A stretch of DNA of 64,000 nt. Source: an uncultured bacterium (GTDB lineage Bacteria > Bacillota_I > Bacilli_A > Izemoplasmatales > Izemoplasmataceae). The stretch is from assembly GCA_965601565.1 (NCBI GenBank), contig CBFCWG010000003.1, positions 21,935 through 85,934 of the forward strand, written 5' to 3'. How positions within the stretch are numbered: position 1 is the first letter of the stretch; each line of letters opens with the position of its first letter. Both the position numbers and the translations under genes were made by a program. Shown here piece by piece: positions 2,503 to 15,061 of this stretch. The notes beneath the pieces are model-generated. The model ran no database searches, was not told the DNA's origin, and was given only the letters and a program-made list of their open reading frames with translations.

Positions 2503-2617
2503 AAAAAAAGACCTATTTCTAGGTCTTTATAACAACATTTGTCTCGTTATGAACGAGTTTATGTTTTAGATACTACTGTCTTTATAGAAATAATATTTTT
2601 GTATCTATAGAGTTGCA
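2503..2617 (-). repeat. Cassette junction J4 (distal att-like site: arm repeats, palindrome, core, type-A terminator)
   Basis: 36 bp at 2503-2538 identical to 13780-13815 next to tRNA-Gly. 23 bp gtctcgttatgaacgagtttatg (2541-2563) identical to 8108-8130. Arm repeats start at 2577 and 2600. Confidence 0.85.
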
Positions 2618-4098
2618 CTTTATCAATTATCTCAAAGTTATAGTGTAGTTATGACTACTACTTCTAGCATGTTAAAAAATATACTAAAGACTGTCTGTTT
2701 CGATATAAATAGGTCAAATCGTAGCAAATTTTAGATATTCTAAGATACTATTGATAATCCTTATGGTTTTCAATTGAACTATCGTAGATATTCTCAAATA
2801 ATTCTTGATTATCGATAAAAACCTTAAATATTCTACTATCAAAATGTATATCAGTTTCACCAGACATTATCGAAATAGCTTCAACGTGAGAAACACTCCT
2901 CTTATATGGTCGTTTTGATCTAAGAGCATCATAGGTATCTACAATAGCAACTACTCTTGCAGTTAAAGGAGTTTCCTCTCCATGTAGTCCTTTAGGATAT
3001 CCAGAACCATCCCATTTTTCATGATGTGAAAGAACAATATCTAATGCAGCTTTTAAAAAGACATTATCATCTCTAGATATATTTAAAACATCCTCAATTA
3101 CAGATGCACCTACTATTGTGTGTGTTTTCATCAATTCAAACTCTTCATATGAAAGTTTGCATTCTTTAAGTAGAACTCTATCAGGTATAGCATTTTTGCC
3201 AATATCATGCAAAGAACTTGCTCTTGATATACATTCAACTTCTGAAAGAGAAATTTGATCAGAAAAAATCTTTGATTCAATCATTTTTAATAATAAACAT
3301 TTTGTAAGCTCTGCAATTCTCTCAACATGTTTTCCCGTTGTATCATCTCTCAACTCAATAATTTTAACTAAAGATAAAATTGTAGTCATCTGAGCATCAT
3401 TTATTTTTTTACCCTGAGAGATAATCTGCTCGTCCTCTTCTCTTATCTTTTTCGAAAGGAATCCAATAATTTGAGAAATAAAAATAAACAAGAGTAATCT
3501 AATTACCCAATTTAATAAATTTTGAGAAGTACCTGTAGTTGTATTTAATGGCATGAGTGGTCCAAGCAATAATCCAAAAAAAACAGCATGTAATATAGAT
3601 GTCTTTCTTGAAAGCAAAATTGAGATTGCTGAGATTGGAATAAAGAGTAAACTGGGTAAAATGGTATGCGTACCCCCTAGAAAATAAACTAAAACACTTA
3701 AACTTAAAGATACACAATAAATTCCAATAATAACGATTTTTTTATTGTTTCTTCGAGTATAATAATTCAACATAAACAATTCCCCCTTCAAACAAAAGAA
3801 TAATAGAATCCAAATATATATATACGTTAAGAATAATTAATATTTTCAACATTACATTATATAATGTAAACACAAAGTAAACAATACTTTTTGTATAGTA
3901 TTTAACAAAAAATAATGGTGATAATGTACGCTATTAAAAAGTGTAATATTAAGGTCCATGTGGTTATGGATTCATAGAAGGCAACTTTAATGTAGGATTT
4001 ATTAAAAATAATGGAATTACATACTAAATTAAGCCGATTTCCAAAACCGTTAAATAAATGAACTATACAAAAAAAAGACCTATTTCTAGATCTTTATA
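2532..4098 (-). mobile_element. Putative integrase-free gene cassette C4 (HD-GYP), 1567 bp core to core
   Basis: Bounded by junctions J4 and J3. Confidence 0.65.
2748..3773 (-). CDS. Membrane-anchored HD-GYP domain c-di-GMP phosphodiesterase
   Basis: HDIGK and HHEKWDGSGYP motifs, 4 N-terminal TM segments. Likely start is ATG 3773 after RBS AAGGGGGA (ORF track start 3791). Confidence 0.9.
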   Translation of the reverse strand: MLNYYTRRNNKKIVIIGIYCVSLSLSVLVYFLGGTHTILPSLLFIPISAISILLSRKTSILHAVFFGLLLGPLMPLNTTTGTSQNLLNWVIRLLLFIFISQIIGFLSKKIREEDEQIISQGKKINDAQMTTILSLVKIIELRDDTTGKHVERIAELTKCLLLKMIESKIFSDQISLSEVECISRASSLHDIGKNAIPDRVLLKECKLSYEEFELMKTHTIVGASVIEDVLNISRDDNVFLKAALDIVLSHHEKWDGSGYPKGLHGEETPLTARVVAIVDTYDALRSKRPYKRSVSHVEAISIMSGETDIHFDSRIFKVFIDNQELFENIYDSSIENHKDYQ

Positions 4099-4151
4099 AC
4101 AACATATTGCTTGTCATTATGAAGATTATAGTGTGTCATTACGAAGTTGCA
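4069..4151 (-). repeat. Cassette junction J3 (variant att-like site lacking the palindrome)
   Basis: Type-A terminator plus core match J0/J4 at 35/36 bp. Direct repeats tgtcattatga (4112) and tgtcattacga (4134) then agttgca, but only 13 bp from the core instead of 45. Confidence 0.75.
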
Positions 4152-4502
4152 TTTTAAATGGCAAGATTAGAGATTCCTCCAAAGCCTAATCTCTTAATGG
4201 ATTAAACTAGAATATAGGAAAATGGTAGAGTTCTATCATCCATACTCGTATCATTACACATAGATTTAGATGCTACTCTAATAAAAATATTTGCACTAAA
4301 CCCAAACATTTATCCTTTTTTCTAGATAAAACTCATTAGCCAGTTCCTTCACAGTCAGTGTAATAATAGTGCATGCTATAGAGTTTTTAAGTCCGTGATT
4401 TTCTCATACTAACCAAGCTATTACTTTCAACTTGTAAGATAGCCACAACATATTGATTAAACTTATTCAATATATTACAATAAAGAAAAGGAGGGATAAA
4501 AC

Positions 4503-4841
4503 TTGCAAAATGAAAGCTCTGATAAAATAATGAAGTATAACTCTATAGTAATAAATAACATCTATTTTTTCGAATCTCACAGACGAGGTGTTAATGCTTT
4601 CTTAAAAGGTAGTTCGGTACCTGTACCTGATTCTCTTAACACTTTAGCCGAAAACTTTCTTTGTAACGGATTTATTCAGATAAGTAAATGGTGCATTGTA
4701 AATATTAACCATGTGACTGATTTAAAGGTTAGACTCAATTCACAAATTGATTTAACCCTTAATAATAAAACAGTTGTAACAGTGAACAGAACATATATAA
4801 AAGGGTTCAGAAATTATCTTAGAAAGGGGACAAAAAAATGA
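4503..4841 (+). CDS. Stand-alone LytTR DNA-binding domain protein
   Basis: FIQISKWCIVNINHV and TVVTVNRTYIK resemble LytTR motifs; TTG start with RBS GGAGG; no receiver domain. Confidence 0.65.
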   Translation: MQNESSDKIMKYNSIVINNIYFFESHRRGVNAFLKGSSVPVPDSLNTLAENFLCNGFIQISKWCIVNINHVTDLKVRLNSQIDLTLNNKTVVTVNRTYIKGFRNYLRKGTKK

Positions 4842-5560
4842 GAATATTTGCCTATTTAGTATTGTTTGTACTTTTTTTACCAACATTTATTTTTGCCTAT
4901 ATGTTTTTTAAGAGATTCTATTATGTTAAGCTATTAAACAATTATCGAAAAAAAAGATCAGTAAAGAATGTGGGTTTCTTCACAAGTCTCTCTAATATTC
5001 GAAAAACCTTGTTTTGCATTTTAATACTAATATTATACGTTTTATTGTCACCAAATATTTTTGCGCTAAGTACTTCATTAAATTATAATGATTGTCCTTC
5101 TAGTGACAACTCTTTACAACTTTATGAACAAGGAACTAATCTACTTATAATTCATATAAATGAGTTGGTTGAGGTTAAAGATTTTAACCCTTTCATTGAG
5201 GGACACACTCCAACAAATAAATTATTTTACGAGTTCTCAGTTTTAGAAAATCTTGACGATAATGATGTTCACTCAAATAAATTATTGACAAACCAACCAG
5301 TAAGCAACTTTCAGTGGAGTGAGAGTACGTGTAGTAATCCAAATAGTGAGATTGCTACAGGTCGCACATACATAGCAATATTAAAGTATAGAGAACCAAA
5401 CATAGAATTCCAAAACAGTGATCCAAGATTAATTAAAAGGGACGATTATGTTATAATAAACATTATTGATATTAGCTCATATGATGATACATTGGACCCT
5501 TTCACTCAGGACATGCCTGTTCAAAGTGTTATTAATGATTATCTAATTCTTTTGGAATAG
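4838..5560 (+). CDS. Hypothetical membrane-anchored protein with extracytoplasmic domain
   Basis: Two N-terminal hydrophobic segments; 4-bp ATGA overlap with the LytTR gene. Confidence 0.7.
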   Translation: MRIFAYLVLFVLFLPTFIFAYMFFKRFYYVKLLNNYRKKRSVKNVGFFTSLSNIRKTLFCILILILYVLLSPNIFALSTSLNYNDCPSSDNSLQLYEQGTNLLIIHINELVEVKDFNPFIEGHTPTNKLFYEFSVLENLDDNDVHSNKLLTNQPVSNFQWSESTCSNPNSEIATGRTYIAILKYREPNIEFQNSDPRLIKRDDYVIINIIDISSYDDTLDPFTQDMPVQSVINDYLILLE

Positions 5561-5561
5561 A

Positions 5562-5600
5562 AAATAAAAGGGACCCCTTTTCTAAAGGGTCCTTTTATTT
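5562..5600. terminator. Bidirectional intrinsic terminator
   Basis: aaataaaagggacccc-ttttctaa-agggtccttttattt between convergent genes. Confidence 0.75.
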
Positions 5601-6225
5601 AATCACTATGTTTATTATTAAATGTTTCTAAGTTATCAATTACTTCTTTTACTTTTTGCCTTACTATAAGATTCTGATTCTTTACTGGATTATTTGGACT
5701 ATAAGATTCTAGATCTATTAATGTTCCTGGTCTTCCCCAATTCTGATATACACCTTCAAAAAGTCTTGAATCTACAGATATCATGTCATCACTAGGTTGA
5801 GAACAAAATAGTATCATAACTTCTCCAACTTGCGGCAAATCAAGAGAATAATCATACAAGACTAATTCCTCATTTTCATAACCTCCATAATAAAAAACGT
5901 CGATTATCTGGTCAAACTCACCTTTTATTGATTTGTGAACTTTAACTGTATAATGTGTAATTGGAATATTTCTGTTACTCAACGTATCATCTTCATTTTT
6001 GATATACGTTGCTTCAATACTCAATATCTCTCCAACAAAAATTTCATTAAACACTTCATAAGGGGTGTCTTTTTTGCTCCAATCAATAAAATAACTGTCT
6101 TCAGTAAGTACTCTATTCACCTTTATAGCGTCAAGTTCATCTTTTTTAGATTCAAAAGCAACTAGAAAAACTATTGAAACACTAATTGCCAAAAATGTTA
6201 CTAATATTAGAATTTTAGATTTCAT
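5599..6225 (-). CDS. Hypothetical exported/membrane-anchored protein
   Basis: N-terminal signal/anchor, acidic beta-rich domain; 4-bp overlap with the upstream peptidase gene. Confidence 0.7.
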   Translation of the reverse strand: MKSKILILVTFLAISVSIVFLVAFESKKDELDAIKVNRVLTEDSYFIDWSKKDTPYEVFNEIFVGEILSIEATYIKNEDDTLSNRNIPITHYTVKVHKSIKGEFDQIIDVFYYGGYENEELVLYDYSLDLPQVGEVMILFCSQPSDDMISVDSRLFEGVYQNWGRPGTLIDLESYSPNNPVKNQNLIVRQKVKEVIDNLETFNNKHSD

Positions 6226-7241
6226 TCATCCCACTTCTCCCTATAAACATCACGATCACAAGGTCCAGGTGAATAAATGTATACGGGGGCTACACCTTGC
6301 AACATTGCATTATAGTCACTTTCATTACTCAATTGCGAACTCCAGTTTGGATTAAAAAACGCCTTAGTCACACTATTTTCATCCATATTAATACCCAAAG
6401 AGTGTCCAATTTCGTGAATAATTGTTTTTGTTTTACCAATATCATTACCCCAATAATCATCCCAAAAAGCAACATTAGTTTCACCCTCAAAAAAGTAAGT
6501 GTTAAAATAAATCAAATCATGAAAAACAGGTCTATAATAATAATATGCTACAGCATAAGAAGAAGCTCCTGCATCATCCTCAAAATAATCATAAAAATGC
6601 AAATCCTTCACAGTTGAAGAAGTATCAGGAGTTATTGTAATAGTATCAAGTTTATTCCATTCACTTATTGCATCATTTATCAATACAGCATATAAGGAGT
6701 TCACATCATAATGAACTTTCTTACCACCGTCAACTGCATTATAAATAGAAAGGTAGTCATCAGGATCATATACGCACTCACATGAATCCAAGAAAACGGA
6801 GTAACTACCATATGAGGTATAATAATATCCATCTATCTTAATATAGTAAATTTTTCCATACTCTGCATAAAACTCTGTATAGAAATTTGGCTCACTCGCA
6901 TAATGTGTTCCCGTTTCATAAGCATCATTGTTATATGCAATCGAGGTTGACAAATTTGTAGACTCATATACATAAACTTTAGTATTTGTTGTTCCTGTTG
7001 AATAAACCGATACTGGTACATCTCTTGTTGGAACAAATCTTAACCAGTCAACATCACTTGTACTTTCAAGACTGCAGTCAACGTCTCCATCAAGGTAAAT
7101 TGACTTATAATTGGATGATGAACTACCACATAAATCAGGTGGTGTTGGTTCATCGGGTCTCGCAAAAACGCTCATATCAGTTGTTAAAATCATTACAAAA
7201 AGCAGACAAACTGTTGTTATCGATAAAAATATCTTTTTCAT
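6222..7241 (-). CDS. Secreted zinc metallopeptidase-like protein (PPC-like domain plus metzincin-like domain)
   Basis: Signal peptide, DVDWLRF...Y..I.I beta-sandwich region, HEIGHSLG motif followed by a Met-turn-like AML. Confidence 0.65.
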   Translation of the reverse strand: MKKIFLSITTVCLLFVMILTTDMSVFARPDEPTPPDLCGSSSSNYKSIYLDGDVDCSLESTSDVDWLRFVPTRDVPVSVYSTGTTNTKVYVYESTNLSTSIAYNNDAYETGTHYASEPNFYTEFYAEYGKIYYIKIDGYYYTSYGSYSVFLDSCECVYDPDDYLSIYNAVDGGKKVHYDVNSLYAVLINDAISEWNKLDTITITPDTSSTVKDLHFYDYFEDDAGASSYAVAYYYYRPVFHDLIYFNTYFFEGETNVAFWDDYWGNDIGKTKTIIHEIGHSLGINMDENSVTKAFFNPNWSSQLSNESDYNAMLQGVAPVYIYSPGPCDRDVYREKWDE

Positions 7242-8060
7242 AATTCTCCTTTCAAAATATAAGTCATTTAATATCTAAATTTGTATTCTACATAATTTGA
7301 TACCCCTCAATATAACCACCTCCCATTCAACTTCAGTAAAATAAAAAGATTCTACTAAATCCATTTACAAAAATTTCCAAACAATAAACAAAAAAAACAA
7401 GCATACCTATTAATTATACCTGTTTCTTCACTGATGTCCCTTACATAGGTTTCATATTTTCATCTTATCATTAGTAAAAAGATTTGTAAACCAAATTAAT
7501 TGCCTACATGTATTTACATCTTTCAACACTAAGTGTTCTACTTAACTTTCTTAAAACTAATAAAACAGACCATCTAGATTGGACAACTTATTAACATTGA
7601 AAGTGTTCGTTGTCAGTAAACAACTTCTCATAGGGAAAACTATTATCATTGATAAGTTCAATAATGTTGTCATCAAAGAACTATGTCTTGTACTTACTTC
7701 ATAAAAATAATTTCTTATTTAATCTGTAAGGAAATCAAGATAGCTTATCTTTAGATTCAATAGATTTTTGCCACATTCATTGATATGTTATTAACTGAGG
7801 AAAGTACATCTTAATAAGTCAAAAAAGGCTTTACTTGAGTTACTGAAGATTAACAAGCCAATTCTCTATTTGCCTTGTAGGTAGGGTACAACTAAATATG
7901 TAAATACTTCTGAAAATACTATAACAAATAATACTAAGATATCTGAAAATACTTTTTTTCTCGATCACATCAGTATAAAACTGATTTACTGGAAATATTA
8001 CCTTCGATTCACCTTTACACCTTTCTTTTAATCGCAATAGGTAAAATATCTATATAATAC

Positions 8061-8184
8061 AAAAAAAGTTTATTTCACTTGGAAATAAACTTTTAATTAC
8101 AACATATGTCTCGTTATGAACGAGTTTATGCTATTAACACCGTTGTCTTCAAAGGAAGATTGATGCTGTCTTTATGGTGTTGCA
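8061..8184 (-). repeat. Cassette junction J2 (complete att-like site, type-B terminator)
   Basis: Core acaacat at 8099, palindrome ctcgtt-atg-aacgag at 8110-8124, arm repeats at 8144 and 8167. Confidence 0.85.
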
Positions 8185-8438
8185 TCAATCATTGGTAGTA
8201 TTGTATTAAAAAGAAGCCAATATCTAGCTTCTTCAACTTTTATTGATTATTAGTCATATATCATTGAACGATCACTAATAAACTCAACCTATTCATTTCT
8301 CATTATTTCTTTAACATCTTTATATATTGATTCTTAAGTCTCTTGAAGGTTATTATATATACTTCTTTTTTTTTCTGTTTTTTTATAAAGACTTACTCTT
8401 TAATTACAAATCCATACGTTTAATCATCAGATATATCA

Positions 8439-10028
8439 TCAATTAAGTAAATTCTTCTTCTTGCCTTTATCTTGGTACATTTGTTGATCGGCAAGACTAA
8501 CAAGGTAATCAATAGTAACTTCATTATCATTAATTGCAAATCCTATAGAAACATCTACAAAACAAGTAACATCGTCAAAAATAAACTCTTTCTTTATTTC
8601 ATTTTGAATATTAATCATAATTTTTTTTATATTTTTTTCGTTATCAACATCTTTTAAATAAATCAAAAATTCATCTCCACCTAGCCTTGCAACAATATCT
8701 GTATCACGTAAACATGATGATAATCGATTTGCTGTTTCTATTAGTAGTAAATCCCCGATATTATGACCATAATTATCGTTAACCTTTTTAAATCCGTCTA
8801 AATCCAGATATAATATCGAAAATATATCATTTCTTTCTTTTAAAATATCTAGTTTGGTAAAAATACCTTTTCTATTAATTAAGTTAGTTAAGGAATCATG
8901 CGTAGCAGTGTATTCTAATATTTCTATTCTCTGTTTTAAACTATATGTTAGTTCATCTAATAACTTTGATACCGGAATGATAACAATTGAAAATATAATA
9001 AATATAGTGAAATACATATTCCTTTGTGTAACAACAACATCTGCTGAGTTTAAATTAACACATCCCAAAATAAATATATCTCCGTTATCAGAATATATAC
9101 CAATATCTCGATTGACTAAATCGGTAATAGCATTCTCAATCTCAGAATTACTAATACTTAAATACGTAACCAATGAATCATTAAACTTTTTCTGTAAAAC
9201 TTCTCCATTGGATACAATCGAAAAATCAATATCAATTCCATGCTTATTATATACAGTATTATCCTCTTTGTCATCAAACATAAATCCAAATTCCAAAGAT
9301 TCATCTTGATTATGCAAATAATATCCATCCTGATTAATAACTTCAAAATTTGCATATTCTGATTGGTTTGTATCGTAGTCATGAAATAAATTTACTGAAT
9401 AATAATTTATGATCAACAATCCAATTTTCTCATTCTCACTATTATAAAGTGGTGTCGCAATTCTCAACATTTGCTTTGGAACATCATTTATATACTCAAC
9501 TTCATCATTTTCAACATTTAAATCTATCTTACTTAAATAAATATAATCATCATCTAAAGCAATTGCATTTTCAAAATAATATCGGTTTGACTTATTTTGC
9601 AATTCCTCAGTTTCAACAAAAATTGGAACTCCATCTTCATTATTAATTCTCAATACTTCCATACCATCTAAACCAATAATTCTGATTTGATCATAGTCTT
9701 GATGAGTCTCCATCCAATCATATAGATCATCTTGAAGTTCCATTTCTTTCTCTTCACTTGAAAATACTATTGTTGATTCATCTAGAACAAGCACTTCCTT
9801 ATTTGATATAATATCATCCATTAATAAGATATTAATCCCTAATCGAACAATATGTTCATCAATATTTACAGCATAAGCTTCAATATCCGTAATTACTTTT
9901 TCACTAATACTTCTCTTTAAAGCAGTCCTTTGTGATAAGTAAACAATGATAAAAATTAAAAAGAAGACAGAAAACATGAAAATTAAATACTTCATCCCAT
10001 TCTTTAAACTTCTATATTTTAAAATCAT
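8439..10028 (-). CDS. Cache-type sensor diguanylate cyclase
   Basis: TM-extracytoplasmic domain-TM then GGDEF (ARLGGDEF) with I-site RDTD. Likely start is ATG 10028 after GAGGTGG (ORF track start 10061). Confidence 0.9.
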   Translation of the reverse strand: MILKYRSLKNGMKYLIFMFSVFFLIFIIVYLSQRTALKRSISEKVITDIEAYAVNIDEHIVRLGINILLMDDIISNKEVLVLDESTIVFSSEEKEMELQDDLYDWMETHQDYDQIRIIGLDGMEVLRINNEDGVPIFVETEELQNKSNRYYFENAIALDDDYIYLSKIDLNVENDEVEYINDVPKQMLRIATPLYNSENEKIGLLIINYYSVNLFHDYDTNQSEYANFEVINQDGYYLHNQDESLEFGFMFDDKEDNTVYNKHGIDIDFSIVSNGEVLQKKFNDSLVTYLSISNSEIENAITDLVNRDIGIYSDNGDIFILGCVNLNSADVVVTQRNMYFTIFIIFSIVIIPVSKLLDELTYSLKQRIEILEYTATHDSLTNLINRKGIFTKLDILKERNDIFSILYLDLDGFKKVNDNYGHNIGDLLLIETANRLSSCLRDTDIVARLGGDEFLIYLKDVDNEKNIKKIMINIQNEIKKEFIFDDVTCFVDVSIGFAINDNEVTIDYLVSLADQQMYQDKGKKKNLLN

Positions 10029-10362
10029 ATTTTCCACCTCTTCTATATCCTTTAGTACCATGTTTTTAAGACGATTACTTATATAACAGATAATGTTGAA
10101 TTATTTGAACTTCCATATATACTTTACCATATAGTGTAATAAAGAAATCGGAGTTCCTAAACTGTAACAAGAGAGATAACTAACTCCAATTACCAAAACG
10201 TTATGCAACACCTTTAGGTGATTTTATTAATATAACCTTATCATATTTTATTTGTAAATTCTTATGTAACTGCACATGTAATATCCTGATCAAGTAAATC
10301 ATTTTCTTCTGTCTTATGAAGAAATAAATTTTACATTTATTATACATAATCTATCTTATTCA

Positions 10363-12465
10363 CTAAGTTTTCATGGATTCCTTTTGCATATAATCTAGCA
10401 ACTCATCTGTACTTAACTCTTTAGAAAAGTAGTAGCCTTGAACATAATCTACACCAAATTTTTTACATAAAGTAAATGTTTTTTCATCTTCTACACCTTC
10501 AACTATTATTTTGTATCCCAAATCCTGAACTAACTTCACAATGTTCTTAAATAATGATTTATCACCATTATCTGTTAATAAAGAACTTGATAAATTACTA
10601 CTAATTTTAACAGCGTCGAATTTTAGTTTTGCCAAATAATTCACTGAACTGTATCCTTCACCAAAATCATCAACATAGAACTCAACATTATTTGATCTTA
10701 AAGTTTGAATTTTATCAACAATTGAAGTTAAATCCTGAACTACTTGCGTCTCAGTAACTTCCATTGCCAAAAATCCACCTTCAACTTTTGAAACTTTCAA
10801 CATCTGTAATATATCGTCAACAAAATCTTCATAAGAAAGGCTTATAGCACTAAAATTAACTGAGTAAAAATAATCATTTGACGAAATATTCCTAATTTTT
10901 TTTGCAACTTCAAGTGTGTTGTGCAAAACAAGTTTATCCAATAAATATATTTTGTAGGTCCTCTCAAGTAAAGGTATAAACTCTCCAGGGGAAATATTCC
11001 CATAAACATCATGATTCCATCTTGACAACGCTTCAAATCCATATACTGCAAGTGAGTCTACTTCAATAATTGGTTGATATACCGTCCTAAACTTCTTAGA
11101 TTTTATAGCTTCATCTAATTGCAGTTCAATTGTATTGCTGCGAGTGTATTTTGATAGTAACTCATTACTAAACACCACCCACTTTTTATGTTTTAGACTC
11201 TTTGCACTCAACAAGGCTAAAATACTATACGATAACAACTCATCTACATCTTTACCATTATCAGGATACTTTGATACTCCTATTTTCACACTAACATTTA
11301 TCTTAGTATAGTCTTTTATATAGGGTTTCTCTAATTTCTCAATCAAATTATCCATAAAATTTAACGGTCCTGTTTGATCGCAATTCGCCAATATCAAGAA
11401 GTCATCTTTGATCAACTTAAAAACCTCACAATTATCAGGAATAATTTTCTTAATTCTTTCTGCCATTTCTTTTATAATAAACTCTGCAGTAGGTTCTCCA
11501 TATAATGTTTTGATAGCCTGAAACTGTAATATATCAATATAAACTAGTTTAAACTTCCTAAATGAATCCGTAAATTCTTTAAATGCAATTGGTAAATACG
11601 CTTTACTATATAGCCCTGTTACAGAATCAAAATATGCAATCTTTTCTAATTTTTCCTGACTCTCCACTAACTTATTATAAAGCATCATATTCGGACTAGA
11701 AATGGAGATATCTAGAAAATAAATTAAAAAACTTACAGATGAAATAAACCTAAATATATGACCCATGAAATTAGTAAAATCACTAGTGCCTATATATAGG
11801 GTAAACATAAACTCCGATATGATAAAGAAAAAAATATAAAGAACTAGAAATTGTAATCTTTTATTTTTCATTGACTCCAATCTAAATACTAAGATTAATG
11901 ATAGTATAAGTATCCCAATAATCACGTACTCACTAACAATCTTAAATAGAGTTAACCCCTCACCGTCAACATACATTGTCGGAAACCACCTTGTAAATAA
12001 AGTAAAATACAAAAAAACTATAATAATTAAGAAATAATTACTTATAGTGAAATGCCATTTCGGTTTGGCAACTATTTTTTGTAAAAAGATTGCAGCTAAA
12101 ATTGTAGAAGACTGAACAAAGCGGCCAATAACCCAAAATTGAGTTGATAAATTGGGACCATATGATATAAAATGAGTTCCACCTTCATATGCAAGTATGT
12201 GAACAACATCAATCATTACAATAAAAATAGACGAAATCCCGATTAATGCTATAAAGAACTGACCTTTTGCATATTTCCATATTGTGACTGTAATAATAGT
12301 AACACATATGAAACAGACAACAGAAGCTAATTCTATAATTGAATGGTATAAATAGTAATCATATTTAGCTAATATCGACATTAAAAAATACAGAAGAAAA
12401 ATAAATAGTATCAAAACTCCAGACATTAAAGTGGTCTTTCGATTCTTATACACTTCTTTTAGCAT
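10363..12465 (-). CDS. MASE3-like membrane sensor, degenerate GGDEF, EAL phosphodiesterase
   Basis: About 8 TM helices with the H..IEL / FW.IGR pattern. GGDEF motif degenerate (LIKDDF). FEALSRW and DDFGEGYSS intact. Likely start 12465 (ORF track 12504). Confidence 0.85.
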   Translation of the reverse strand: MLKEVYKNRKTTLMSGVLILFIFLLYFLMSILAKYDYYLYHSIIELASVVCFICVTIITVTIWKYAKGQFFIALIGISSIFIVMIDVVHILAYEGGTHFISYGPNLSTQFWVIGRFVQSSTILAAIFLQKIVAKPKWHFTISNYFLIIIVFLYFTLFTRWFPTMYVDGEGLTLFKIVSEYVIIGILILSLILVFRLESMKNKRLQFLVLYIFFFIISEFMFTLYIGTSDFTNFMGHIFRFISSVSFLIYFLDISISSPNMMLYNKLVESQEKLEKIAYFDSVTGLYSKAYLPIAFKEFTDSFRKFKLVYIDILQFQAIKTLYGEPTAEFIIKEMAERIKKIIPDNCEVFKLIKDDFLILANCDQTGPLNFMDNLIEKLEKPYIKDYTKINVSVKIGVSKYPDNGKDVDELLSYSILALLSAKSLKHKKWVVFSNELLSKYTRSNTIELQLDEAIKSKKFRTVYQPIIEVDSLAVYGFEALSRWNHDVYGNISPGEFIPLLERTYKIYLLDKLVLHNTLEVAKKIRNISSNDYFYSVNFSAISLSYEDFVDDILQMLKVSKVEGGFLAMEVTETQVVQDLTSIVDKIQTLRSNNVEFYVDDFGEGYSSVNYLAKLKFDAVKISSNLSSSLLTDNGDKSLFKNIVKLVQDLGYKIIVEGVEDEKTFTLCKKFGVDYVQGYYFSKELSTDELLDYMQKESMKT

Positions 12466-12652
12466 AAACATATACCCCCTTAAGACCATAATTAAATAAA
12501 TCATTCTTATATATATATATTCTATCAGATAATAGAGTTTAGTTCAATTTTTTAACATGTTTAGAACTATTATGAAAAAATTATATTAAATGTGCTAAAT
12601 TAAAGTTGAAATAGCCGATTCCCTAAATCGCTAAATAAAGCTTCTATATAAT

Positions 12653-12777
12653 AAAAAAGTCTATTTCTGTTATTGAAATAGACTTTTAATTACAACATAT
12701 GTATCGTTATTATTGATTTTATGTCTCAAATATTACTGTATTTATAATGGTACTATCATTGTATTTATGGAGCTGCG
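12653..12777 (-). repeat. Cassette junction J1 (complete att-like site, type-B terminator)
   Basis: Core acaacat at 12692, imperfect palindrome atcgtt-att-attgat, arm repeats at 12737 and 12760. Confidence 0.8.
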
Positions 12778-12783
12778 TTCGCA

Positions 12784-13704
12784 TTAATTTAGTACGTGCA
12801 ACCATAATTTTTCAGATTCCAAAACTAAATCTGATACTATTCTTATAAATTTAGTATAGTCAGTTGTGGTATGAGCTGTATCTAATGCATCATAATACTC
12901 TAAACGATTTTCTTTTTTGATAACTATTGGTGGATATCCATTTCGCATAAGCTCAAAATTCAATAACAACCTTGCAGTTCTCCCATTCCCATCAATAAAT
13001 GGATGGATTTTTACGAATTCCCCATGTAACAATGTTGCTTTCACAATAGGATGGTATTCACTCCAACTAGTTTTCATCTCATATACTAGTCTCTGCATTT
13101 GATCAGGGACTATTATATGACTTGGAGGAATATGTTTTGCACCACTGATTAGTACATTTTCATTACGGTATTTTCCTGCGTTTACATTATCAATATCTTT
13201 TAGTATTAATTGATGAACGCTTTTAACATTCCGTTCTGTCATAGTTTCATTCTTATCTAGTAAAGTTTCAATGAACAATATAGCCTCTTTATGATTAATT
13301 GCTTCTAAATGTTCAATAATACTCTTTCCTCCAATAGTGATTCCTTCTAGAACAACCTTGGTTTCTAACATTGTTAATTTATTCCCCTCAATAGCATTAC
13401 TATTATATGTCCACTCAACAATTAAATTGTCTCTAAGAGTTTTAGCCTGTGTCATCTTCAAAGGTCTATGTGCATCAATTTCTTCTTTCAATGTTGTATG
13501 TTTTGAGAAATCATATTCTAATCCTTGATAATCTATGATAATCTTTCTACGATTATCAACTGGTTTTTTTGCATCAGAAGGAATAGACCAATTTCTACCA
13601 ATTTTTAAAGCACCTTCAATTTTCCCTTCAGTGCATAGAACTCTTATCCTTCTATCTGATAACCCCCATTTCAACCCAGTTTCTTTTGAAGTTATGTATT
13701 TCAT
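12784..13704 (-). CDS. Fic family AMPylase with N-terminal HTH
   Basis: HPFIDGNGRTAR active-site motif, SNAIEGN inhibitory helix, N-terminal HTH (WGLSDRRIRVLC..G.I.GA.K.GRNW.IP). Confidence 0.9.
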   Translation of the reverse strand: MKYITSKETGLKWGLSDRRIRVLCTEGKIEGALKIGRNWSIPSDAKKPVDNRRKIIIDYQGLEYDFSKHTTLKEEIDAHRPLKMTQAKTLRDNLIVEWTYNSNAIEGNKLTMLETKVVLEGITIGGKSIIEHLEAINHKEAILFIETLLDKNETMTERNVKSVHQLILKDIDNVNAGKYRNENVLISGAKHIPPSHIIVPDQMQRLVYEMKTSWSEYHPIVKATLLHGEFVKIHPFIDGNGRTARLLLNFELMRNGYPPIVIKKENRLEYYDALDTAHTTTDYTKFIRIVSDLVLESEKLWLHVLN

Positions 13705-13721
13705 CTAATCACCTCATCTAC

Positions 13722-13739
13722 ATTATATACCGATATCGG
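13722..13739 (-). promoter_or_regulatory. fic promoter -10 box with adjacent palindrome
   Basis: TATAAT (13722-13727, minus strand) and CCGATATCGG (13730-13739). Confidence 0.5.
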
Positions 13740-13777
13740 AATAATAGCAAATATAAGAAGTGAAGAAAATCATTAGC

Positions 13778-13816
13778 AAAAAAAAAGACCTATTTCTAGG
13801 TCTTTATAACAACATA
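13778..13816 (-). terminator. tRNA-Gly terminator, which is also junction J0 of the cassette array
   Basis: Minus strand: TATGTTGT TAT AAAGACCTA GAAA TAGGTCTTT TTTTTT immediately after the tRNA CCA. Confidence 0.85.
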
Positions 13817-13890
13817 TGGAGCAGGTGAAGGGAATCGAACCCTCACAATCAGCTTGGAAGGCTGAGGTTCTACCATTAAACTACACCTGC
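13817..13890 (-). tRNA. tRNA-Gly (TCC)
   Basis: 74 nt GCAGGTGTAGTTTAATGGTAGAACCTCAGCCTTCCAAGCTGATTGTGAGGGTTCGATTCCCTTCACCTGCTCCA; anticodon loop CTTCCAA, T-loop GGTTCGATTCC, encoded CCA. Confidence 0.97.
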
Positions 13891-13905
13891 ATATATATTA
13901 ATAGT

Positions 13906-13935
13906 ATGATATCACAATAGTTTAACTAATGTCAA
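13906..13935 (-). promoter_or_regulatory. Promoter of the tRNA-Gly copy at 13817
   Basis: TTGACA (13930-13935), 18 bp, TG-n-TATCAT (13906-13911). Confidence 0.65.
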
Positions 13936-13996
13936 ACATACTAATTGTTGTTTCAAGTTCATCTTTATAAAAGATTCACTTCACCGACATAAAAAA

Positions 13997-14070
13997 TGGA
14001 GCAGGTGAAGGGAATCGAACCCTCACAATCAGCTTGGAAGGCTGAGGTTCTACCATTAAACTACACCTGC
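13997..14070 (-). tRNA. tRNA-Gly (TCC), identical second copy
   Basis: 74 nt identical to 13817-13890. Confidence 0.97.
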
Positions 14071-14137: not shown

Positions 14138-15061
14138 TTACAATTTTTTAACTGCACGTAATTTAGCACTGTGGGCTCGGTTATTATGTGCAAGTTCTTC
14201 TTCACTTGGTAAAATTACTTTACGATGAAGTAACTCAAAATCCGGTTTAATATCCGGCATCATTGGCACGTTTTTAGGAATATTGATTGTTGTTTTCTCA
14301 CGCATAATTGTTTTGGCAATTCTATCTTCTAAGGAATGGAATGTAATTACAACAATTCTTCCGTCAGAATTTAATAAATCAAATGCCTGTTCTAAAGAAT
14401 CTTCAAAAACTCTCAACTCATCATTCACAGCTATTCTTAGAGCTTGGAAGGTTTTCTTAGCAGGATGACCTTTTTTATTTAATATCTTTTGTGGTAAAGA
14501 ACTCTTAATTACATCTACTAGTTCAAATGTGTTTTTTATTCTTTTATTTTCCCTTACCTTCTCAATTTTACGAACAATCATTTTCGCATTTTTTTCCTCA
14601 CCATATCTAGTTAAAATACGCATCAGATCATTAAATGAATACTCATTAACAATTATTTCCGCAGTTAATTCCTGATTTTGATTCATTCTCATATCAAGTG
14701 GTGCATCATAATTATAGCTAAAACCTCGTTCAGGAATATCGAATTGGAATGATGAAACTCCTAAGTCATATAATATCCCATCAACCTTATCTATACCTAT
14801 TTCATTTAGTCTATCTTTTATGTTAACAAAATTACTTTTGATAATTGTATAATTCTTGCTCAATTTATCTAATTTCTCAGTGGCTCTACTAATTGCGTAA
14901 TCATCTTGATCAAAAGCATATAAATGTCCAGAATTTAATCTTTTCAGGATTTCAAAAGAATGTCCACCTCCACCTAATGTGCAGTCGACGTAAATTCCAT
15001 CTTCTTTAATATCTAAGTAATCTAAACTTTCATCTAATAGAACTGATATATGTTTATACAT
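14138..15061 (-). CDS. rsmH: 16S rRNA m4C1402 methyltransferase
   Basis: [48 protein letters not shown] motifs. Confidence 0.97.

Follow-up and report, generated by a model that had tools for sequence, protein, structure and literature searches.

Cis-mobilisable elements (CIMEs), and integrative elements that accumulate in tandem behind the 3' ends of tRNA and other genes, are known from the ICESt1/ICESt3 family of Streptococcus thermophilus. An attP site of the lambda type combines a core with arm-type sites for a heterobivalent tyrosine integrase, the core-type and arm-type sites being different. The IRS of Tn4430, used with TnpI, has a core of two inverted motifs and two accessory direct repeats on one side. 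Here we describe four accessory-gene modules stacked behind one tRNA-Gly in an uncultured Izemoplasma-like bacterium, each bordered by a composite repeat of ~150 bp that joins a tRNA-Gly tail, a terminator and a block in which short repeats are phased. The array looks like the result of serial insertion of recombinase-less gene islets at a single site. The whole stretch of DNA analysed, 64,000 nucleotides, is called the window.

Organization of the array

J1 to J4 are the borders of four modules that stand in a row from tRNA-Gly(TCC) to the displaced trailer and terminator of that tRNA. The core is not free-standing but is the trailer of tRNA-Gly: according to ARAGORN and the sequence it begins exactly at the 3' end of copy 2 of the tRNA, with the first bases past CCA, and the terminator of that tRNA comes next. 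Trailer and terminator are present in five copies in the 11.3 kb beside the tRNA and in none in the remaining 50 kb of the window. The features are as follows.

13997..14070, minus strand: tRNA-Gly(TCC) copy 1, with another trailer, CCATTTTTTATGTCGG, of the type found in most relatives (ARAGORN, sequence)
13817..13890, minus strand: tRNA-Gly(TCC) copy 2, CCA end followed directly by TATGTTGT, the core (ARAGORN; Rfam, 71.5 bits; sequence)
13775..13816, minus strand: J0, core CATATGTTGT and type-X intrinsic terminator (AAAGACCTAGAAATAGGTCTTT, then a T run), joined to the tRNA
12784..13704, minus strand: module 1, Fic-domain protein (Pfam Fic)
12703..12777, plus strand: J1 left half, decayed palindrome (12703-12717), TTTATG, first direct repeat DR1 (12737-12747), second direct repeat DR2 (12760-12770), CTGCG (12773-12777)
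12655..12702, minus strand: J1 right half, core and type-Y terminator (AAAAGTCTATTTC..GAAATAGACTTTT), homologous to the tRNA-Gly trailer of the relative L008
8439..12504, minus strand: module 2, MASE3-GGDEF-EAL protein (10363-12504) and sensor-GGDEF protein (8439-10061) (Pfam)
8110..8184, plus strand: J2 left half, palindrome CTCGTTATGAACGAG (8110-8124), TTTATG, DR1 (8144-8154), DR2 (8167-8177), TTGCA (8180-8184)
8068..8109, minus strand: J2 right half, core and type-Y terminator
4503..7241, mixed strands: module 3, stand-alone LytTR regulator (4503-4841, plus; Pfam), putative membrane protein (4838-5560, plus) and two proteins without Pfam matches (5599-6225 and 6222-7241, minus)
4112..4152, plus strand: J3 left half, TGTCATTATGAAG, 9-bp gap, TGTCATTACGAAG, then TTGCAT
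4074..4111, minus strand: J3 right half, type-X terminator and core ACAACATAT (80%, D2 family)
2748..3791, minus strand: module 4, HD-GYP phosphodiesterase (Pfam HD_5)
2543..2617, plus strand: J4 left half, palindrome (2543-2557), TTTATG, DR1 (2577-2587), DR2 (2600-2610), TTGCA (2613-2617)
2507..2542, minus strand: J4 right half, type-X terminator and core ACAACATTTGT

Read on the minus strand, a border consists of two halves. One is a block of ~90 bp at the tRNA-facing end of the module. TGCAA lies in it together with two direct repeats of a CYATAAAKACA-type motif and a third related copy within a short palindrome, and its terminus ...ACGAGACA is conserved. The other half, the core CATATGTTGT and then an intrinsic terminator, is identical to what succeeds the CCA end of the tRNA. 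Each junction copy is located 3' of a minus-strand gene and closes with a strong minus-strand terminator. The left half of J1 directly follows the Fic stop codon, and J4 is the outermost copy, with ordinary flanking genes beyond.

The cargo is accessory in type: a Fic protein, c-di-GMP turnover enzymes, a LytTR system and secreted-looking unknown proteins. The HD-GYP protein of module 4 has its nearest homolog elsewhere at 48% identity. From reading the sequence, a DNA-binding HTH with no Pfam match is predicted at the N-terminus of the Fic protein, and the product of 4838-5560 is assigned to the membrane only putatively, from its translation. The base composition of the modules did not differ from that of the flanks. 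Screening of the array, of other window proteins and of the relatives' modules turned up no tyrosine or serine recombinase, no transposase and no HUH enzyme.

Spacing and conservation of the repeats

The phasing that the earlier note had reported for J4, J2 and J1 was confirmed. ACAACAT stands at 2532, 8099 and 12692, and the 11-bp repeats follow at +45 and +68 (2577/2600, 8144/8167 and 12737/12760). This paired pattern occurs three times in the window versus 0.04 times expected from shuffles; the single 11-mer is not enriched (17 matches versus 15.3 expected). The three junctions align without gaps over 92 bp at 74% identity, with a three-way identity baseline of ~0.09 for unrelated sequence of the same composition. 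Invariant columns number 10/11 in the core, 10/15 in the palindrome, 6/6 in TTTATG, 7/11 in DR1, 8/11 in DR2 and 4/7 in the tail, in total 45 of 61 in the blocks against 4 of 25 in the spacers (Fisher p = 1.7e-6). The spacers between the repeats had been described as diverged, and indeed the two retain 2/13 and 2/12 invariant columns. Since the terminator half of the same repeat has indels and the 92-bp block none, spacing appears to be constrained within this genome. Conserved blocks at fixed spacing, separated by substitution-saturated spacers, point to probable protein-binding sites rather than a recent duplication, as had been proposed. The motif copy adjacent to the core resembles the arm repeats.

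The same DR-DR-TTGCAT block is present in J3 (4099-4152), 66% identical to the J4 block by hand count; it is missing from the description in the earlier note. Its repeats begin at +13 from the core with a period of 22, and the palindrome is absent. Exact spacing does not hold as a general rule, failing in J3 and also in the positionally equivalent elements that follow Fic in the relatives L087 and L095, where the repeat period is 33. The argument that the sites are kept on one helical face was not sustained either: 23, 45 and 68 bp correspond to 2.19, 4.29 and 6.48 turns and not to whole helical turns, and therefore the sites are not on one face. As to the compensatory change claimed for the J1 palindrome, one double change does exist but two broken or wobble pairs are also there, and the claim selects what fits from a hairpin of weak conservation. 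The palindrome shows weak covariation: over 5 sequences, 88% of cells pair in an extended hairpin, and 30 of 500 shuffles score equally. On the minus strand this hairpin has two double changes, and G-U pairs are possible on that strand only.

The locus in related genomes

Four genomes differ in the number of modules between tRNA-Gly and the terminator, which is 0 in L008, 1 in L087, 2 in L015 and 4 in the window. L008, whose RsmH is only 78% identical to that of the window genome, has a single tRNA-Gly joined directly to TGTTGTAATTAAAAGTCTATTTCCAAGTGAAATAGAC; this trailer is near-identical to the right half of J2 (42 of 44 positions by eye, both differences forming one compensatory stem pair). 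In L087 the tRNA is adjoined by the Fic module, ...ACGAGACATA and then the same terminator type. The order in L015 is tRNA, adjoining Fic pseudogene, ...ACGAGACATA, terminator, MFS gene and again the same terminator type. The numbers of 0, 1 and 2 modules between tRNA and terminator, together with a core at the tRNA 3' end, fit junctions formed by recombination at a tRNA-linked site.

The Fic module occupies the same place in at least three species, and the repeat element 3' of Fic is kept in three other genomes, with cargo downstream of Fic that varies between species. Conservation between orthologs ends sharply between ACGAGACA and TA. The distance from repeat to palindrome is 62 in L087 versus 40 in the window. 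J1 corresponds in position to the elements of L087 and L095, yet shows the 23-bp period of J2 and J4 and not 33, which argues that the block was homogenised or propagated within the window lineage. The left flank of the array had no match in any relative examined, and a true empty site with both flanks is therefore lacking. No further homologs were found in the genome, metagenome or viral collections searched.

Origin of the junctions

We tentatively favor, at somewhat less than even probability, an origin of J1 to J4 by serial insertion of circles at the tRNA-Gly trailer. Circular DNAs with the layout terminator, promoter, cargo, repeat block and core would have been inserted successively by conservative recombination, the crossover lying at the core, and every insertion would have produced a further copy of the core and, with it, a composite junction. 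The modules would be non-autonomous like CIMEs, because they encode no recombinase, and the gene for this enzyme may lie elsewhere in the genome or on an element since lost. It would bind the repeat block as its arm-type or accessory region, which would explain the conserved blocks, the fixed spacing and the randomised spacers. The recombination site suggested by the earlier note keeps its support from the blocks, the saturated spacers, the core abutting the tRNA and the relatives with 0, 1 and 2 modules; it loses the one-face argument and the general spacing, and no recombinase was found for it. On this reading insertion would have been site-specific, although homologous recombination between the 150-bp repeats would yield an identical junction pattern, which counts against serial insertion. 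So does the Fic module, whose single place in at least three species fits an old and now immobile arrangement. The negative screen for a recombinase, the unmatched left flank, the uniform base composition, the differences of spacing in J3 and the orthologs and the absence of further homologs also speak against it, as does the likeness of the core-adjacent copy to the arm repeats, in which the array departs from lambda.

The main rival, which we consider rather unlikely, is that the stand-alone LytTR regulator encoded in module 3 binds the paired repeats as its boxes, placed on the plus strand just upstream of a -35-like TTGCAY. A transcription factor had already been named as an alternative in the earlier note, and the idea gains weight from this regulator (a Pfam match) and its putative membrane partner, directly downstream with overlapping stop and start, just past J3. 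LytTR proteins bind paired direct repeats of similar size and period, namely two 9-bp direct repeats separated by 11-13 bp and placed 4-11 bp upstream of -35; the sequence is poorly conserved while the geometry is, and many boxes end in CTTAT or CTTAC (PMC6193735). Upstream of the LytTR operon and on its sense strand, J3 reads TGTCATTAT, 13 bp, TGTCATTAC, 4 bp and TTGCAT; it would be the autoregulatory site of the operon. All four junctions place the second repeat 4 bp from TTGCA or CTGCG. However, J4, J2 and J1 have a gap of 14 bp, and L087 and L095 one of 24 bp, exceeding the published range. By reading there is no consistent -10 at 13-18 bp, and the better promoters of an automatic scan omit these sites. 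J3 is ~350 bp upstream of the start codon, with a better promoter-like site at 4453-4481, and J4, J2 and J1 would be regulated promoters firing only antisense, into the HD-GYP, GGDEF and Fic genes, with a hairpin and T run within ~40 nt in J2. The LytTR gene was not seen in the 5-kb L087 contig. Regulation by LytTR leaves the palindrome, the sharp ...ACGAGACA end and the link to the tRNA trailer unexplained, and a different cause, such as duplication or insertion, would be required for the repeats of trailer and terminator.

Also unlikely, and ranked after the LytTR boxes, is a copied 3'-end module of minus-strand genes, combining a conserved 3'-UTR with a small hairpin and a terminator, which would have spread by local segmental duplication or homologous recombination with no site-specific recombination. 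It could act at the RNA level in mRNA stability or processing, or as a 3'-UTR-derived small RNA. The position of all copies behind a minus-strand gene, the strong terminators, the 88% pairing with two double changes, folding z-scores of -2.4 to -5 and the retention of the element 3' of Fic in other genomes agree with such a role. But the pair score is equalled by those 30 shuffles, J1 and L087 have true stem mismatches, the fold energy comes mostly from the terminator and no Rfam match to the element was found. By reading, another terminator-like hairpin separates the GGDEF stop from the element in J2. The indels that distinguish species, of 10 and 22 nt, suit a DNA-spacing constraint better than a single RNA fold, and the clustering of copies solely behind the tRNA, with the trailer inside the repeat, would stay unexplained.

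It is very improbable that the module ends are those of a non-autonomous transposon or single-strand (HUH) element, in which a series of directly repeated transposase-binding motifs would end in ...ACA-3', the cleavage site would have a subterminal hairpin beside it and insertion would occur after CATA at the tRNA end. Three motif copies do share one orientation, the last abutting the sharp ACGAGACA boundary; modules begin with TGTTGTTAT, a weak inverted copy of the motif, and hairpins are found near both module ends. A weight-matrix scan nevertheless gave no significant inverted copies at the opposite ends, no transposase was found among the screened proteins of the window or in the relatives' modules, and target-site duplication is absent beyond the shared core. 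The insert-free relative has, as its native tRNA trailer, a sequence identical to the left "end", which fits a shared att site instead. Hardly credible, finally, is a small hydrophobic, type I toxin-like peptide (MSRYERVY...) encoded on the junction plus strand from the core ATG/TTG: ORFs of 23 codons in J4 and 30 codons in J2 share MSRYERVY, with some conservative or synonymous changes across the "spacers", but the frame is shut after 5 codons in J1 (MYRYY, then stop) and after 4 in L087 and L015 (MSRH, then stop; read from the reverse complement), so that stop codons largely refute it, and it has no upstream ribosome-binding site and unconserved C-termini.

Comparison with known systems

Serial insertion at the tRNA trailer can be set beside several described arrangements. 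Like lambda attP, the array has a short shared core beside a tRNA gene and two ~11-bp direct repeats on one side, at fixed distances and with unconserved spacers. Unlike lambda, it has no integrase, clear inverted core-type sites were not found, and the site beside the core is similar to the arm repeats and forms no distinct class; the distances are helically out of phase and differ in J3 and in other species. The Tn4430 IRS likewise has a single type of motif, which serves at the crossover and recurs in the two direct accessory copies to one side of it. It differs in resolving cointegrates within a Tn3-family transposon that encodes TnpI, whereas the array has neither transposon nor TnpI and lies in a chromosomal tRNA context.

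LytTR boxes of the HdrRM/BrsRM type (PMC6193735) share with the array a LytTR regulator that stands alone and has a membrane partner, direct repeats paired at a period of ~22 bp and located 4 bp from a -35-like hexamer, and low sequence conservation with conserved geometry. The array departs from them in the 14-bp gap of three of its four sites, the absence of a convincing -10, the antisense position of three of the four sites relative to genes and the tie of the boxes to the tRNA trailer and palindrome. Integron cassette arrays (attC) are similar in stacking genes at a single platform, most of them pointing the same way and each with a repeat behind it that resembles a recombination site; the cassettes themselves encode no recombinase. 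R''/L''/L'/R' attC motifs, IntI and attI are absent here, however, the modules have their own terminators and apparently their own promoters, and a tRNA gene serves as the platform, in a lineage related to Mollicutes.

With respect to CIMEs, the array has no visible cognate ICE or integrase, its segment of identity is formed by the tRNA trailer and terminator and not by part of a gene body, and its modules are very small (1-4.6 kb) and putatively mobile, each having a terminator and apparently also a promoter of its own. Nevertheless, CIMEs resemble the modules in being non-autonomous, without integrase or transfer genes, and bounded by att-like repeats that share a core, and in forming a head-to-tail stack at one chromosomal site, in which each junction consists of an element arm, the core and the next sequence.

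Organization of the Locus

The window is AT-rich (27–33% GC), and its RsmH is 74–79% identical to Candidatus Izemoplasma/Izemoplasmatales RsmH, which indicates that the DNA comes from an uncultured relative of these organisms. Read in minus-strand order, an 11.3-kb stretch of modules (cargo groups 1 to 4: Fic, GGDEF pair, LytTR group, and HD-GYP) comes after rsmH and two tRNA-Gly genes. Left of the array lie ordinary genes, encoding a TetR regulator, a membrane protein, and an oxidoreductase.

Features of the locus (where no strand is given, the feature is listed in minus-strand order)
14138-15061, minus, rsmH
13997-14070 and 13817-13890, minus, tRNA-Gly(TCC), two genes
12784-13704, Fic protein
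10363-12504, MASE3-GGDEF-EAL protein
8439-10061, sensor-GGDEF protein
5599-7241, two proteins of no known family
4503-5560, plus, stand-alone LytTR regulator and putative membrane protein
2748-3791, HD-GYP phosphodiesterase

The base composition of the modules does not differ from that of their flanks, and a foreign composition was rejected. The best HD-GYP homolog elsewhere in the protein collection is 48% identical, so this protein is without ortholog context, and no element lies downstream of the homologs found for the GGDEF proteins (59% and 50% identity).

Several features of the cargo were recorded in passing. Three c-di-GMP turnover genes (HD-GYP, sensor-GGDEF, and MASE3-GGDEF-EAL) are clustered at 2748-12504 in a relative of the wall-less Mollicutes. 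At 6222-7241 (minus) a 339-aa protein has an N-terminal signal-like segment and a HEIGH motif (zinc metalloprotease-like) with no Pfam match, and it is followed by a 208-aa protein, likewise secreted-looking, whose family is not known. Just upstream of Fic, the palindrome TTCCGATATCGGTA (13733-13746) overlaps the TATAAT box; it is kept upstream of every Fic homolog examined (also L087, L088, L091, L092, and L015, loci fetched from related genomes), even at homologs of 70–73% identity in unrelated contexts, and is probably an operator for Fic autoregulation through the HTH-looking N-terminal region. A box of about 28 bp is shared by 12613-12640 and 4032-4059 (AGCCGATTCCCTAAATCGCTAAATAAAG and AGCCGATTTCCAAAACCGTTAAATAAAT). 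Both copies come after a terminator on the minus strand, those of junctions J1 and J3, and lie upstream of the GGDEF-EAL and HD-GYP promoters; they may serve the c-di-GMP genes as a common regulatory site or belong to the other arm of the module.

The Core as a tRNA Trailer

The junctions J0 to J4 are copies of the tRNA-Gly trailer and terminator, J0 next to the tRNA and J4 outermost, with J1 to J4 at the module borders. Their core, ACAACATATG (CATATGTTGT on the minus strand), is the same at J0, J1, J2, and J3 and has one change in J4. The core and hairpin copies at J3 (4065-4129) and J0 (13775-13839) are additional to the three junctions of the earlier note. J0 directly adjoins the second tRNA-Gly at its 3' end, where the minus strand reads ...CACCTGCTCCA-TATGTTGTTATAAAGACCTAGAAATAGGTCTTTTTTTTT, and the core is thus made up of the initial ten bases of the tRNA trailer. 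The hairpin flanking it is an intrinsic terminator of two types: type X (AGACCTAGAAATAGGTCT) is almost identical in J0, J3, and J4, and type Y (GTYTATTTC..GAAATARAC), which among the fetched loci occurs near tRNA-Gly only, is found in J1 and J2. Five core/terminator copies lie in 11 kb beside the tRNA and none in the other 50 kb of the window. The tandem duplication of tRNA-Gly(TCC) in the window (13891-13996 between the copies) also occurs in L015 and L023; in the window the second copy comes with a separate promoter-like site (TTGACA, 18 bp, TATCAT), and it alone of the two bears a core-type trailer.

Related genomes hold simpler arrangements. In L008 (Ca. Izemoplasma sp.) a single tRNA-Gly is joined directly to type Y, beyond which the flank shows no synteny. 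In L087 a Fic gene 80% identical to that of the window separates tRNA-Gly from type Y, 1.15 kb downstream, and in L015 (Izimoplasma sp. ZiA1) the distance is 2.1 kb, with a pseudogene of Fic and a gene for an MFS transporter between the two. With the window included, the number of modules separating the tRNA from the same terminator forms the series 0, 1, 2, and 4. The Fic module of L087 and L015 ends ...TAATGACGAGACATA just before the next terminator, where similarity to the window stops. Cargo differs between species. The Fic module occupies the same place in at least three of them and may therefore be old and fixed. Between the type Y of L008 and the right half of J2 there are two differences, and together these make one compensatory stem pair. 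Neither tRNA nor element was found at L088 and L091 (the Fic homologs of 70–73% identity), and five related loci had no repeated tRNA trailers downstream of tRNA-Gly. The contig ends of L007, L008, L010, and L013 and the contig start of L087 fall within 300–700 bp after rsmH-tRNA-Gly or inside the tRNA, which would be expected of a region that in those populations, too, is repetitive or variable.

Conservation and Spacing of the Repeat Block

The repeats recur in the window as a 92-bp unit in three copies, at J4 (2526-2617), J2 (8093-8184), and J1 (12686-12777), with 74% identity in a gapless alignment, and the coordinates given for them in the earlier note were all correct. The paired pattern occurs three times against 0.04 expected, and the single 11-mers are not enriched. 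Across the core, the palindrome, TTTATG, the two repeats, and the TTGCA tail 45 of 61 columns are invariant, as against 4 of 25 in the two spacers, where about 9% is expected for unrelated sequence of the same composition (Fisher p = 1.7e-6). Both the feature and the constraint on its repeat blocks are real. The spacers appear saturated with substitutions yet carry no indels, whereas the adjoining terminator half does, so that the spacing itself looks constrained within the genome of the window.

This constancy has limits. J3, a fourth junction that had been missed, shares terminator and core (ACAACAT at 4099) with the others; these are followed at 4112-4152 by TGTCATTATGAAG, 9 bp, TGTCATTACGAAG, and TTGCAT. 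Counted by hand, the identity of this block to that of J4 is 66%, a value similar to J2 against J4. J3 has neither palindrome nor first spacer (about 32 bp), and its repeats begin at +13 from the core with a period of 22. In L087 and L095 the repeat pair and a TGCAA box are recognizable directly after the Fic stop codon with a period of 33 compared to 23 in the window, and the distance from repeat to palindrome is 62 in L087 compared to 40. The core-to-arm distances that had been proposed are exact in J4, J2, and J1; J3 has +13, and the period is 33 in L087 and L095. The placement of the sites on one helical face must be given up, since 23, 45, and 68 bp amount to 2.19, 4.29, and 6.48 turns. 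The two length differences between these relatives and the window, 10 and 22 bp, come near whole helical turns, which with two events is at most a hint. J1 stands at the same position as the elements of L087 and L095, but its 23-bp period is that of J2 and J4, so that the block must have been copied or homogenised within the lineage of the window. At 8158-8190, J2 also has a perfect 9-bp inverted repeat of its own (GATTGATGC ... GCATCAATC) around the second 11-bp repeat.

Searches for Homologs and Recombinases

Profile searches (nhmmer, three-copy profile) against all 105 loci gave matches in L008, L087, and L015 only, and the sample of the element comprises seven copies from four genomes. Exact and degenerate patterns had no match in GTDB genomes. 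In JGI metagenomes two pattern scans gave 0 and then 2 matches, both within GC-rich coding sequence, and in IMG/VR four scans gave 14 matches in total, none with flanking features. No true homologs that would mark a cognate ICE or IME with the same att site were found in these genome, metagenome, and viral scans. In two sequencing runs just 5–6% of the sampled words were present, probably from tRNA.

No tyrosine integrase was detected by Pfam in any ORF of the array, in 20 further window ORFs, or in the module genes of relatives, or by a six-frame reading of 1-1300, nor was a recombinase of any kind present in the array, the other window ORFs screened, or the relatives' modules. As for inverted core-type sites, reading disclosed a weak symmetry only, TTTATAAC .. 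GTTATGAA with unequal offsets plus the palindrome ACATATGT, and no convincing inverted match on the tRNA side of the core.

Regulatory and RNA-Level Explanations

In LytTR regulatory systems a small LytTR regulator is paired with a membrane inhibitor (PMC6193735), and autoregulation of these systems uses two 9-bp direct repeats, 11–13 bp apart, placed 4–11 bp upstream of the -35 (PMC6193735). The window encodes a LytTR regulator of 112 aa (PF04397 at 4503-4841, E = 1.6e-16) and, at 4838-5560, a 240-aa ORF with hydrophobic N-terminal segments and no Pfam match, a putative membrane protein. The regulator's stop overlaps the start of this ORF, the gene arrangement of an HdrRM/BrsRM-type LytTR regulatory system, here in a genome resembling that of Izemoplasma. 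With an operon of stand-alone regulator and membrane protein at hand, the paired repeats could be predicted to be LytTR binding boxes, and the geometry of J3 fits (13-bp gap, 4 bp, TTGCAT), J3 lying in sense orientation ahead of the LytTR operon. The gap is 14 bp in J4, J2, and J1, however, and 24 bp in L087 and L095, and no consistent -10 was found at 13–17 bp by scan and reading. J3 alone faces the operon in the sense direction, about 350 bp off, whereas J4, J2, and J1 would fire antisense into the HD-GYP gene, the GGDEF genes, and Fic, and neither the palindrome nor the tRNA trailer is explained. We consider LytTR boxes unlikely. At 4445-4455 a further 11-nt copy of the core in its J3 version (ACAACATATTG), with no terminator, coincides with the -35 of a promoter-like site immediately before the LytTR gene; it may be due to chance or be a remnant of another junction.

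The hairpin beside the core raises the possibility of an element that acts at the 3' end of an RNA. Over five sequences, two of them from other species, pairing holds in 88% of cells, with double changes at two pairs; this argues for such an element at best weakly, for 30 of 500 column shuffles equal the observed pair score. The covariation argument for the palindrome does not stand. It is perfect in J2 and J4 only; the compensatory change reported in J1 is indeed present as one double change (C:G to A:T), but alongside G-T and T-T pairs. What all five sequences keep is the right half and the end, (A/G)ACGA(G/T)ACA and then TA. Rfam matched the two tRNAs only, the junctions being nowhere near the gathering threshold, and an RNA-level role appears quite improbable.

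Other candidates were rejected. A small ORF or type I toxin (MSRYERVY..., plus strand, from the core) is open in J4 and J2 only and has stops in three of five copies, the frame closing after 4-5 codons in J1, L087, and L015; the ORFs at 8106-8198 and 2539-2610 share MSRYERVY with some synonymous or conservative changes. Transposon ends were dismissed because the left "end" is the native trailer of the insert-free relative L008 and a weight-matrix scan gave no inverted copies. For integron attC, the R''-L''...L'-R' motifs (RYYYAAC/GTTRRRY) are absent by reading and no integrase was found. A dif/Xer site matches at best 5-7 of 11 positions per arm, with a GC-rich central region and no GC-skew switch. 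A decayed tRNA shows no similarity in alignment, a sigma-54 promoter at TTGCA lacks the GG-N10-GC spacing, and a minus-strand small-RNA promoter has good -10 and -35 boxes in J3 and J4 only.

Probable Junctions of Serial Insertions

Each insert is flanked by a duplication of about 150 bp, and such a duplication is the mark of circular DNA inserting by recombination within the duplicated stretch. Repeated use of one attachment site is indicated by a repeat that begins exactly at the tRNA 3' end, by the clustering of its copies there and nowhere else in the window, by cargo that is accessory in type and varies across species, and by the sharply defined module end. The weaker statement, that J1 to J4 are the borders of serially inserted modules, is likely. 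Homologous recombination between the repeats would result in the same junctions. Spaced conserved blocks on one side of the core are as expected of candidate binding sites for a recombinase or an accessory protein, and we tentatively favor the reading of the junctions as site-specific ones whose repeats are predicted to bind a recombinase, at somewhat less than even chances. This best available reading is close to the idea of the earlier note, but it is unproven, and its chief weakness is that no recombinase was present in the screened ORFs. On the recombination-site reading, the attP of the recombinase's own element would read ...ACGAGACA-CATATGTTGT-terminator.

A more far-reaching possibility is an integron-like gene-stacking platform in an Izemoplasma lineage, in which a recombinase, host-encoded or unrecognised, would serially insert self-contained cassettes (terminator, promoter, cargo, and repeat block) precisely at the tRNA-Gly 3' end, at a site unrelated to attC or known att families, with cassettes exchangeable across species, an exchange at which the near identity of the terminator half in L008 and J2 hints. 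We regard it as a long shot.

Izemoplasmatales are a little-studied, uncultured sister group of Mollicutes, and to our knowledge almost nothing is known of their mobile-element biology. If the junctions are true recombination sites, they would offer a compact and clearly delimited substrate (core, palindrome, and two or three repeats in about 90 bp) that could help find the recombinase building the accessory-gene arrays of Izemoplasmatales. If the repeats are LytTR boxes, the locus would tie a LytTR system to antisense control of c-di-GMP genes. The cargo is notable for a wall-less lineage, with its three c-di-GMP turnover enzymes, Fic protein, and LytTR sensory pair. The finding is local either way: it concerns a single genome, with traces in three relatives, and stays within the known kinds of systems.

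Among these systems the array resembles CIME-like accretion: as a match of pattern only, its modules are likewise bounded by att-like sequences, are without recombination or transfer genes, and are stacked at one site. The nearest known pattern is the tandem accretion of integrase-less elements at a tRNA gene, and the finding is probably one more case of a known kind of structure.
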